Positions 48,500 through 49,235 of a stretch of 64,000 bases of DNA are shown one piece after another. Origin of the DNA: a virus (taxonomy: Duplodnaviria; Caudoviricetes); IMG/VR virus record IMGVR_UViG_651703099_000001, positions 8,333 to 72,332 of that record; one strand, 5' to 3'. Both the position numbers and the translations under genes were made by a program. A model generated the notes under the pieces. It did no database searches. It saw only the letters and a program-made list of their open reading frames with translations, and was not told where the DNA came from. Within the stretch, counting starts at the first letter, position 1, and each line of letters starts with the position of its first letter.

Positions 48500-49235
48500 A
48501 TGGCACGGAAACCCGCCAAGTTCCAGCTCAATACGGAGCAGCAGAAGCTGGCTGCCGACAACCTGAACCTGGCTAGGCGGGAAGCGTGGCGTATACAGCG
48601 CTCAACTGGTATCGACTACCACACCCTGGAGTCGGTCGCCTTTGAAGGGCTGTGTAAGGCTGCCTACAGGTACGATGCCAGCAGGCCGCACCCCGTCACC
48701 GGCAAGAGCATGAAGTTCTCTTCGCTGGCCATTCCCACTATTCGTGGCGAGCTGCTGCACTGGGTGCGCGACAGAACGTACTCGATGCGCCTTAGCCACA
48801 AGATGCGCGAGCGCTGGGTCAAGGGCCGCAAGCTCCTGTATCGCGGCTCTACCGACATCGAGATCGCTGCCAGCCTGGGCATCCTTCTCGAGGAGTGGCA
48901 GGAAGTGCGTAAGGTATGCTCTGGCCCACCGCTGGAACTGAAGGACCAGGCCACCCCTACGGAGCCCCTGGAGCCCTCTGAGGTGGACTTCGCCTCGATA
49001 TACCTGGAACAGGCTAGTAACGCCATGAATGAGCTGCGGGGCGATCTACAGGACTACCTGGGTCAGATCGAGCTCTACCTCAACGGCAATGGCAGTCGCG
49101 TCCCCCAAGGCCGCTGTTGATGCGCTCCTCTCTACCGCTGGCTGCGCTACCACCGACTGGAGTCAAATGGATGTAAACTTACTTGACGGCTGGGAGGACG
49201 TTGGCGACGGTCGCCTGCAAGGTTCCCTCTTCTGA
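48500..49235 (+). CDS. SigF/SigB-like phage sigma factor lacking region 4; +1 shift at C5 (49102-49106) leads to C-terminal QGSLF
   Basis: NLNLARREAW, AFEGLCKAAYRYD, FSSLAIPTIRGELLHWVRD; as written it stops at 49120, while the +1 frame continues with coding-like codons to 49235. Confidence 0.8.

Follow-up and report, generated by a model that had tools for sequence, protein, structure and literature searches.

The DNA described here is a stretch of 64,000 nucleotides (nt), hereafter the window, from a siphovirus-like phage related to the Synechococcus phages S-CRES1, S-CRES2 and S-CRES3. It corresponds to bases 8333-72332 of the IMG/VR record IMGVR_UViG_651703099_000001, a genome of 72,332 bases rated 100% complete by CheckV. 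Positions 48500-49235 of the window, on the + strand, hold the gene of a sigma-70-family factor of SigF/SigB-like type, 244 amino acids (aa) long in its intact form, which ends in a tail resembling the peptides that dock on the bacterial beta sliding clamp (DnaN). On balance, comparison with relatives makes it somewhat probable that this tail ties phage transcription to replication through the DnaN of the host, the window's copy of the gene being interrupted by one extra C. The reading is carried by the domain make-up of the protein, its intact form in relatives, the conservation of the tail, the lack of clamp and polymerase genes in the phage, and the presence of a promoter-like word, from which we infer clamp binding, promoter choice and the coupling to replication. 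As a variant of clamp-coupled phage transcription, it is well supported by comparison but unproven.

In the proposed mechanism, domain 2 of the sigma factor would bind the clamp helices of RNA polymerase and would read and melt a -10-like word. The host replisome would leave beta clamps on the phage DNA, and the tail would dock in the hydrophobic pocket of such a host clamp on replicating phage DNA. The clamp would supply the upstream anchor that is normally given by the -35 contact, and RNA polymerase carrying the phage sigma would fire efficiently at -10-only promoters (GGCATnCTA) only on replicating templates. An activation of late genes by the host clamp had been proposed in the initial annotation of the window. 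Comparison supports it as regards the conserved tail, the textbook motifs in kin, the lack of an own clamp or polymerase, the -35-less word and the precedent of the Mu C protein; two of its elements, the frameshift as a feature of the gene and the absence of region 4, did not hold.

Domains and C-terminal tail of the sigma factor

The open reading frame (ORF) found in the window runs from 48500 to 49120 (+) and encodes 206 aa that comprise sigma domains 2 and 3 and most of a reduced domain 4, including FSSLAIPTIRGELLHWVRD; it matches phrog_36098, 'RNA polymerase sigma factor', from end to end (E 5.7e-119). Its stop follows an extra base in a run of five C (49102-49106, +). Skipping one base in this run gives the 244-aa reading, which ends in DGWEDVGDGRLQGSLF with its stop at 49235, as expected from the initial proposal that a one-base shift at the C run opens a frame to ...RLQGSLF-stop. 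The continuation in the next frame (49107-49235, +) holds the last helix of the reduced domain 4, an acidic linker, the tail and the stop codon (49233-49235), and joining 48500-49106 to 49107-49235 yields the uninterrupted 244-aa form seen in all relatives.

An AlphaFold model was computed for the intact form (mean predicted local distance difference test score, pLDDT, 75.8). Domain 2 consists of four helices (residues 12-92) and matches the sigma-2 domain of SigE (8b3z_A) with a Z score of 12.3 and a root-mean-square deviation (rmsd) of 2.0 over 79 aligned residues. Pfam Sigma70_r2 is matched by 50/50 family members (best E 4.4e-13), the ORF of the window taken alone scoring 18.2 bits, under the 24-bit cut-off. 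Domain 3 is formed by three helices (100-141). Residues 8-151 of the model align with domains 2 and 3 of SigB, SigA and FliA, the comparison of both domains with SigB (8x6g_H) giving Z 9.8 and rmsd 5.8 over 130 residues, and Pfam Sigma70_r3 is matched by one of the 50 members. Profile matches in the PDB include SigB (8x6g_H, 1e-9) and SigF (1l0o_C, 2e-9), with regions 2 aligned, and the NCBIfam SigF profile PRK07408 covers residues 15-185 with E 3.6e-20, its positions 202-258 being unmatched. These results agree with the resemblance of regions 2-3 to SigF-type factors noted from the sequence at the outset. The scores stay below the SigF/SigB/SigG subfamily cut-offs (72.7 vs 261 bits for PRK07408, 41.2 vs 234 for TIGR02980), and the SigF/SigB group, as judged from these matches, is the nearest cellular kin of the phage sigma rather than a group to which it belongs. 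Cellular SigF, SigB and FliA (cyanobacterial and Gram-positive group-3 factors) match domains 2 and 3 best, in sequence as well as in fold. Cellular SigF differs in having neither the acidic linker nor the QxxLF tail, and the phage sigma in lacking the recognition helix of region 4.2.

Region 4 had been described as devoid of a helix-turn-helix (HTH). No match to Pfam Sigma70_r4 or r4_2 is obtained with any of the 50 members at E values up to 10, and no HTH is detectable; the region is nevertheless not wholly absent, as three helices (164-179, 184-194 and 203-213) follow a disordered linker and align with region 4.1 of SigF and the first helix of its region-4.2 HTH. The SigF alignment stops past this first HTH helix and leaves the recognition helix without a counterpart. 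When the C-terminal part is modelled alone (pLDDT 78.1), its best fold matches are sigma-4 domains, although weak ones (3hug_A, Z 4.8, rmsd 4.6, 59 aligned; none with Z of at least 5 in VIA-align), and a Foldseek search with the same model returns no match at E <= 0.001. What persists of region 4 is therefore a remnant, which may retain its hold on the beta flap but is very probably unable to read a -35 box.

Helix 203-213 is followed by some 15 acidic, poorly predicted residues and by a C-terminal G-R-x-Q-x-x-L-F. In the window, the motif QGSLF (codons 49218-49232, +) stands at the extreme C-terminus behind this low-confidence linker and displays the Q at position 1 and the L-F at positions 4 and 5 that define a clamp motif; Q, L and F are invariant in relatives whereas their codons vary. 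This was quantified on 34 distinct DNA tails from viral contigs, in which the three residues are unchanged while being written with six codons for L, two for Q and two for F, next to six for the upstream R, and the two residues between Q and L vary freely. These tails had been picked for QxxLF, which is the ending of 44/45 long-form ORFs, the remaining one ending in QGNVF. The pattern argues that the tail is under selection. The presence of a C-terminal QxxLF in homologues, an obvious check of the initial proposal, was found in 44 of the 57 complete viral ORFs of the close clade and in every non-self protein (119/119) among the best 120 of 768 matches with E <= 0.001. All of the latter are uninterrupted, the sole exception being the window's own 206-aa call. 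Protein P0134, which shares only 38% identity with the closest metagenomic protein (P0005) and has an unrelated linker, still ends in GNGRVQPNLF. Outside viral records, a scan for the close clade of one genome from each of 185,579 species returned a single locus, L147, on an 82-kb contig (DGOV01000074.1) of a 'Proteobacteria' metagenome-assembled genome; it encodes a full-length sigma, 64% identical, and the contig is probably a mis-binned phage.

More distant relatives display the motif in its textbook form, for which the consensus QL[SD]LF is given in passages of PMC12867686. A HMMER search with the 206-aa ORF returned 410 relatives, and the motif was counted over the 149 listed beyond the first. 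Q[LMIV]x[LMIF][FLM] or QxxLF occurs within the last 20 residues of 23 of them, against about 2 expected from the frequency of the motif elsewhere in the same proteins. The distant relatives (230-370 aa) consist of sigma domains 2-3 and a basic linker and end in QLDLF, QLNLF, QLGLF, QLALF or QLGLL; Q and L are nearly invariant in their alignment, at 24-45% identity. A scan of IMG/VR yielded 148 distant sigma genes, of which 80 loci were kept with 76 complete ORFs. A clamp motif lies within the last 40 aa of 63 of these 76 (QLDLF, QLALF, QLVLF, QLGLF, QLGLLVA, QMGLLVA, QADLF). Position 2 of the motif is L or M in the distant relatives.

Promoter-like word and source of the clamp

The word GGCATACTA, with at most one mismatch, occurs at 21 sites against 9.3 +/- 2.9 expected, a number reached in none of 100 shuffles. 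The form GG[CA]A[TA][ACT][CA]TA has 21 + strand and 3 - strand occurrences in the window. Eighteen of the + strand sites fall outside ORF calls, which were crude for this purpose, and 16 of these lie 13-59 nt before the next + strand ORF. One of the approximately 18 intergenic copies is located at 19922-19930 (+); others start at 7419, 11680, 14649, 16764, 21097, 26803, 27788, 27823, 29242, 30413, 33165 and 54983. The copies at 27788 and 27823 belong to a direct duplication of about 35 nt (27778-27831, tttgccaatcGGCATCCTAgacctgacgg). The aligned sites share about 11 bases (t-n-GGcATnCTA) and no column exceeds 0.6 bits from -50 to -3. The conservation of the core columns is circular, given that these columns served to choose the sites; no such reservation applies to the lack of conservation upstream. 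The promoters had been described as devoid of a -35 box, and the aligned sites agree, none being conserved. This -10-only word, GGCATnCTA, precedes virion genes.

The strand bias of the word is shared by relatives. In S-CRES3, 20 sites are found on the + strand and 2 on the - strand, before the genes of the small terminase subunit (TerS), ribonucleotide reductase (RNR), portal, tape measure, tail, scaffold and capsid. In 60 close loci, 44 sites lie on the + strand and 1 on the - strand, usually about 30 nt before TerS. The corresponding word before the window's TerS (46128-46136) is a one-mismatch variant, GGTAAACTA. We regard GGCATnCTA as a real promoter-like word of these phages without a -35 box, and the phage sigma would be the factor that reads it. 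Since the sigma gene stands behind the word in most relatives, either sigma acts on its own gene or the word is read by another factor. Neither a sigma-70-type promoter nor an intrinsic terminator was found in 48250-49300, where 0.2 and 0.6, respectively, are expected in shuffles. A second word, TA[TG]ACTGG, occurs before the primase start (49236-49251), before the sigma start (48466-48480) and near 54960. S-CRES1 has the copy before the primase as well, and the word may represent another promoter class or a translation signal.

As to the source of the clamp, the initial annotation had seen no phage polymerase or clamp in the window. This could be extended by profile searches to the complete genome of 72,332 bases, in which no clamp (PF00712), PolA, PolIII-alpha or PolB is found. 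The annotation of S-CRES3 similarly lists a helicase, a replication protein, a primase, a single-stranded DNA-binding protein (SSB), a Rad52-type recombinase and RusA, and lists no polymerase or clamp. Having neither gene, the phage must rely on the host replisome for its replication. A gene for a full-length bacterial-type DnaN is present in 6 of the genomes of 17 distant relatives, 5 of these being among the 10 virus records with a completeness of 90% or more; PolIII-alpha and PolA are found in 0/17 each. If the clamp had a role in transcription, one would expect just such a lineage, with a clamp, without a polymerase and with a sigma that ends in a clamp motif. The orphan dnaN frames, of 367-398 aa, belong to genomes G001, G002, G003, G008, G009 and G014 (loci L008, L009, L013, L049, L064 and L021).

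The tail of the sigma factor is not the only one of its kind in the genome. Among 600 six-frame ORFs of at least 40 aa, two end in QxxLF, namely the sigma read-through and a RusA-like resolvase (43771-44142, +). The latter ends in CEQEPLF, as read initially from its QEPLF terminus, and thus bears the second clamp-motif-like tail. Among 120 listed homologues of this protein, 44 end in QEELPF and 18 in QxxLF, 70 fit Qxx-L-(x)-[FL] at the C-terminus and 13 stop at the RusA core; the S-CRES3 copy ends in HEYLF, without the Q. These endings suggest that the RusA-like protein may be a clamp-docked Holliday-junction resolvase.

Weighing the roles of the tail and comparison with known systems

Several observations speak against the tail acting as a host-clamp anchor for late transcription and have to be set beside those above. 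The tail is predicted with low confidence in both structure models. In the close clade, the consensus L at position 2 of the motif is replaced by G, P, A, T or E. The tail is missing from 12 of the 57 complete close-clade ORFs (203-214 aa, GC content 41-47%), which stop right after the third C-terminal helix, as well as from the sigma of the Prochlorococcus phage PSS2. It is therefore dispensable for at least some of these sigmas. Neither clamp nor PolA is found in the 16 virus records of tail-less phages (0/16), with no link between being tail-less and owning a polymerase or clamp, so that the loss of the tail is not explained by a changed replication machinery. Besides virion genes, the promoter-like word stands before the RNR gene and, in S-CRES3 and most close relatives, before the block formed by TerS, TerL (the large terminase subunit) and sigma, which is awkward for a strictly 'late' sigma-dependent class. 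Finally, the host is deduced solely from kinship with the Synechococcus phages S-CRES1-3, to which 40% of the genome aligns at 74%. The deviation at position 2 has a parallel in Mu C, whose working motifs QHDLF and QPDLF deviate at the same place (described in parts of PMC12867686).

The first alternative accepts the clamp as partner and gives the contact another end: the tail would serve to soak up or block host clamps and so shut off replication or repair in the host, to park sigma or RNA polymerase at replication forks as a means of managing replication-transcription conflicts or priming, or to link transcription to packaging. A precedent is provided by Mu C, whose overproduction depletes clamps and disturbs host replication (reported in sections of PMC12867686). 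The clamp-like tails of the RusA-like proteins (70 of the 120 listed) would also fit, as docking on the clamp may be a widespread trait of these phages, and the existence of tail-less sigmas indicates that the tail is unneeded for basic sigma function. Nevertheless, a T4-type activation model predicts precisely what is seen, a sigma that has lost its -35-reading helix and a -10-only word, and relatives with a clamp of their own would hardly need to poison it. We consider this alternative unlikely.

A second alternative, which we would likewise place among the improbable ones, is that the tail is a docking tag for a different partner, such as the terminase, the primase, a hub of the type served by SSB tails or an RNA polymerase surface. 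An acidic stretch with a C-terminal aromatic residue behind it is reminiscent of other docking tails, and the close-clade motif has residues other than L at position 2. The sigma gene is moreover tightly linked to those of the primase and of TerL, a homologue of which (30-43% identical to that of the window) lies upstream of sigma in 77 of the 80 distant loci (L007-L086). Against such a partner stand the exact clamp consensus words of the distant relatives (QLDLF, QLNLF, QLGLF), the dnaN genes without polymerase in 6/17 relatives and the fact that the conserved residues Q, L and F occupy exactly the positions that define the clamp motif.

The clamp-docked sigma would most resemble the late transcription system of phage T4, in which a minimal sigma (gp55), a flap-binding co-activator (gp33) and the gp45 sliding clamp act together (PDB 7D7D; described in passages of PMC7892883). 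The likeness to gp55 comprises a -35-blind phage sigma, -10-only promoters, a C-terminal clamp-binding peptide on a flexible linker and replication-coupled late transcription (PMC7892883), clamp binding being in our case predicted from sequence. T4 encodes its own trimeric PCNA-like clamp and a loader, whereas the phage of the window has none of its own and would use the dimeric DnaN of the host; the motif is of the bacterial QxxLF type, unlike that of T4. Gp55 has a sigma-2-like domain only, whereas the present protein belongs to the sigma-70 family proper, with domain 3 beside domain 2 and a residual domain 4. The gp55 family is absent from the Pfam and PHROG matches, and the fold match to gp55 (7d7d_F; Z 6.1, rmsd 2.6, 75 aligned) is confined to domain 2 and weaker than that to SigE sigma-2 (Z 12.3), so that the phage sigma is no relative of gp55. 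No counterpart of gp33 was found.

The second known system is that of phage Mu, whose C and Mor proteins recruit the Escherichia coli beta clamp for late transcription at promoters without evident -35 by means of Qx[DE]LF-type motifs (Ho & Harshey 2026, in parts of PMC12867686). Mu C shares with the sigma factor a motif that deviates at position 2 and the use of the host beta clamp (PMC12867686), the latter being presumed for the window. Mu C is however a small DNA-binding activator that still needs the host sigma-70, whereas the motif stands here on the sigma itself, and the two proteins are unrelated. The present phage further differs from Mu in its host, presumably cyanobacterial, in being siphovirus-like and in its size of about 72 kb.

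So far, only two phage systems have been shown to activate transcription through a clamp: T4 uses its own and, since 2026, Mu is known to use that of the host, reached through an activator. A literature search for sigma factors with a clamp or a clamp-binding motif, supplementary files aside, returned T4, Mu and review papers only and none on this family. The sigma gene itself is known, as it is annotated in the S-CRES records; in those of S-CRES1/2/3 and PSS2, it is named sigma factor or SigF only and its tail is unannotated. The novelty lies in the conservation of the clamp-type tail, in how widely it occurs among phages and in its tie to orphan phage clamps: a clamp motif on a true sigma-70-family factor without a -35 reader, conserved in hundreds of environmental phage sequences including the cultured S-CRES1-3. 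If the clamp-coupled reading is right, phages would commonly link transcription to replication through the bacterial beta clamp, a strategy that would have evolved independently. The 'orphan' phage dnaN genes would also be explained, and a handle would be gained on the timing of virion production in abundant cyanophages. A bolder version can be put forward tentatively. A large, undescribed lineage of siphovirus-like phages, Synechococcus phages included, might share a clamp-tethered sigma-70-family switch, the phage DnaN, carried without a polymerase, being in some of them a clamp dedicated to transcription and not to replication. The TerL-sigma linkage might then mean that replication, late transcription and packaging are all coupled on one clamp in the manner of T4, with the RusA-type resolvase docked there too. 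Packaging of T4 in vitro depends on late transcription and on the clamp machinery, according to portions of PMC12867686.

The reading-frame break and the gene neighbourhood

The sigma factors of S-CRES3 (gp21) and S-CRES1 (gp20) are orthologues with 85% and 73% protein identity, respectively (73% for S-CRES1/2), encoded by single ORFs of 735 nt that end in GRAQGSLF and GRIQGSLF; the corresponding stretch of the window measures 736 nt. DNA alignment places the surplus base in or beside the C run, which is absent from S-CRES1 at this place (ATTCCTGTT). The closest metagenomic protein, P0005, has 244 aa, is 98% identical with four residues differing from the window's read-through and is identical to the latter across the break. 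The intact ORF of about 244 aa occurs in S-CRES1, in S-CRES3 and in contigs of all four sequencing runs compared. In the C run itself, the contigs (4/4 public runs from four studies, 90-99% alike) lack the base at 49102 and carry a G at 49106, which restores GTC CCG AAG in frame, as in relatives. These runs are samples other than the source (the best of 23 listed runs holds 0.46 of the words), and no RNA data set is among the 23 listed. Judging from the aligned sequences, the extra C most likely arose from an error in sequencing or assembly, or else as a mutation private to this virus, and the 206-aa call in the record is a probable frameshift artefact of a 244-aa gene. The shift as a real feature of the gene, a possibility considered initially, is contradicted by the intact ORFs of all the relatives examined and by the four runs.

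A conserved programmed frameshift is excluded, as no relative has a shifted ORF and no slippery site is conserved, S-CRES1 being without the C run and the nearest contigs reading CCCG. The idea that the extra C is real, the gene being broken in this virus or giving a 206-aa tail-less sigma plus a 244-aa tailed form through occasional +1 slippage of prolyl-tRNA on CCC-C, is very improbable, for although the C5 run permits perfect re-pairing one base on and the natural tail-less clade (203-214 aa) ends near the same place, so that a truncated product could work, the shift occurs in 0/57 complete viral ORFs, 0/119 listed proteins and 0/4 runs' contigs, and the C run gives way to ATTCCTGTT in S-CRES1 and to CCCG in the nearest contigs. 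A 48-codon frame does start at ATG 49089, as initially reported; its suggested role as a gp33-like peptide was rejected. No separate ORF exists there in relatives, and in the tail-less clade the primase follows directly after the sigma stop and leaves no room. With the relatives' ORF intact and the extra base missing from the contigs of all four runs, the 48-aa peptide is an artefact of the break.

The sigma gene is directly preceded by the small and large terminase subunits (46147-48310), TerL occupying 46787-48310 (+), and directly followed by a DnaG-type primase (49252-50856, +), with a phosphoesterase/exonuclease also directly downstream. The adjacency of sigma and primase noted initially is thereby confirmed, the latter starting at 49252. 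The same order of TerS, TerL, sigma and primase is observed in S-CRES3 and S-CRES1, and this neighbourhood is kept in the tail-less clade. The members of the tail-less subclade (loci L131-L143) end about where the truncated ORF of the window ends, with the primase directly next. In the distant loci, no match to the primase is found, and the terminase-sigma linkage is far better conserved than that of sigma with the primase. The 'type III sigma' of PSS2 shares the N-terminal 150 residues with 47% identity. The gap upstream of the sigma gene (48311-48499) is unusually long, with 190 nt vs 25 nt in S-CRES3.

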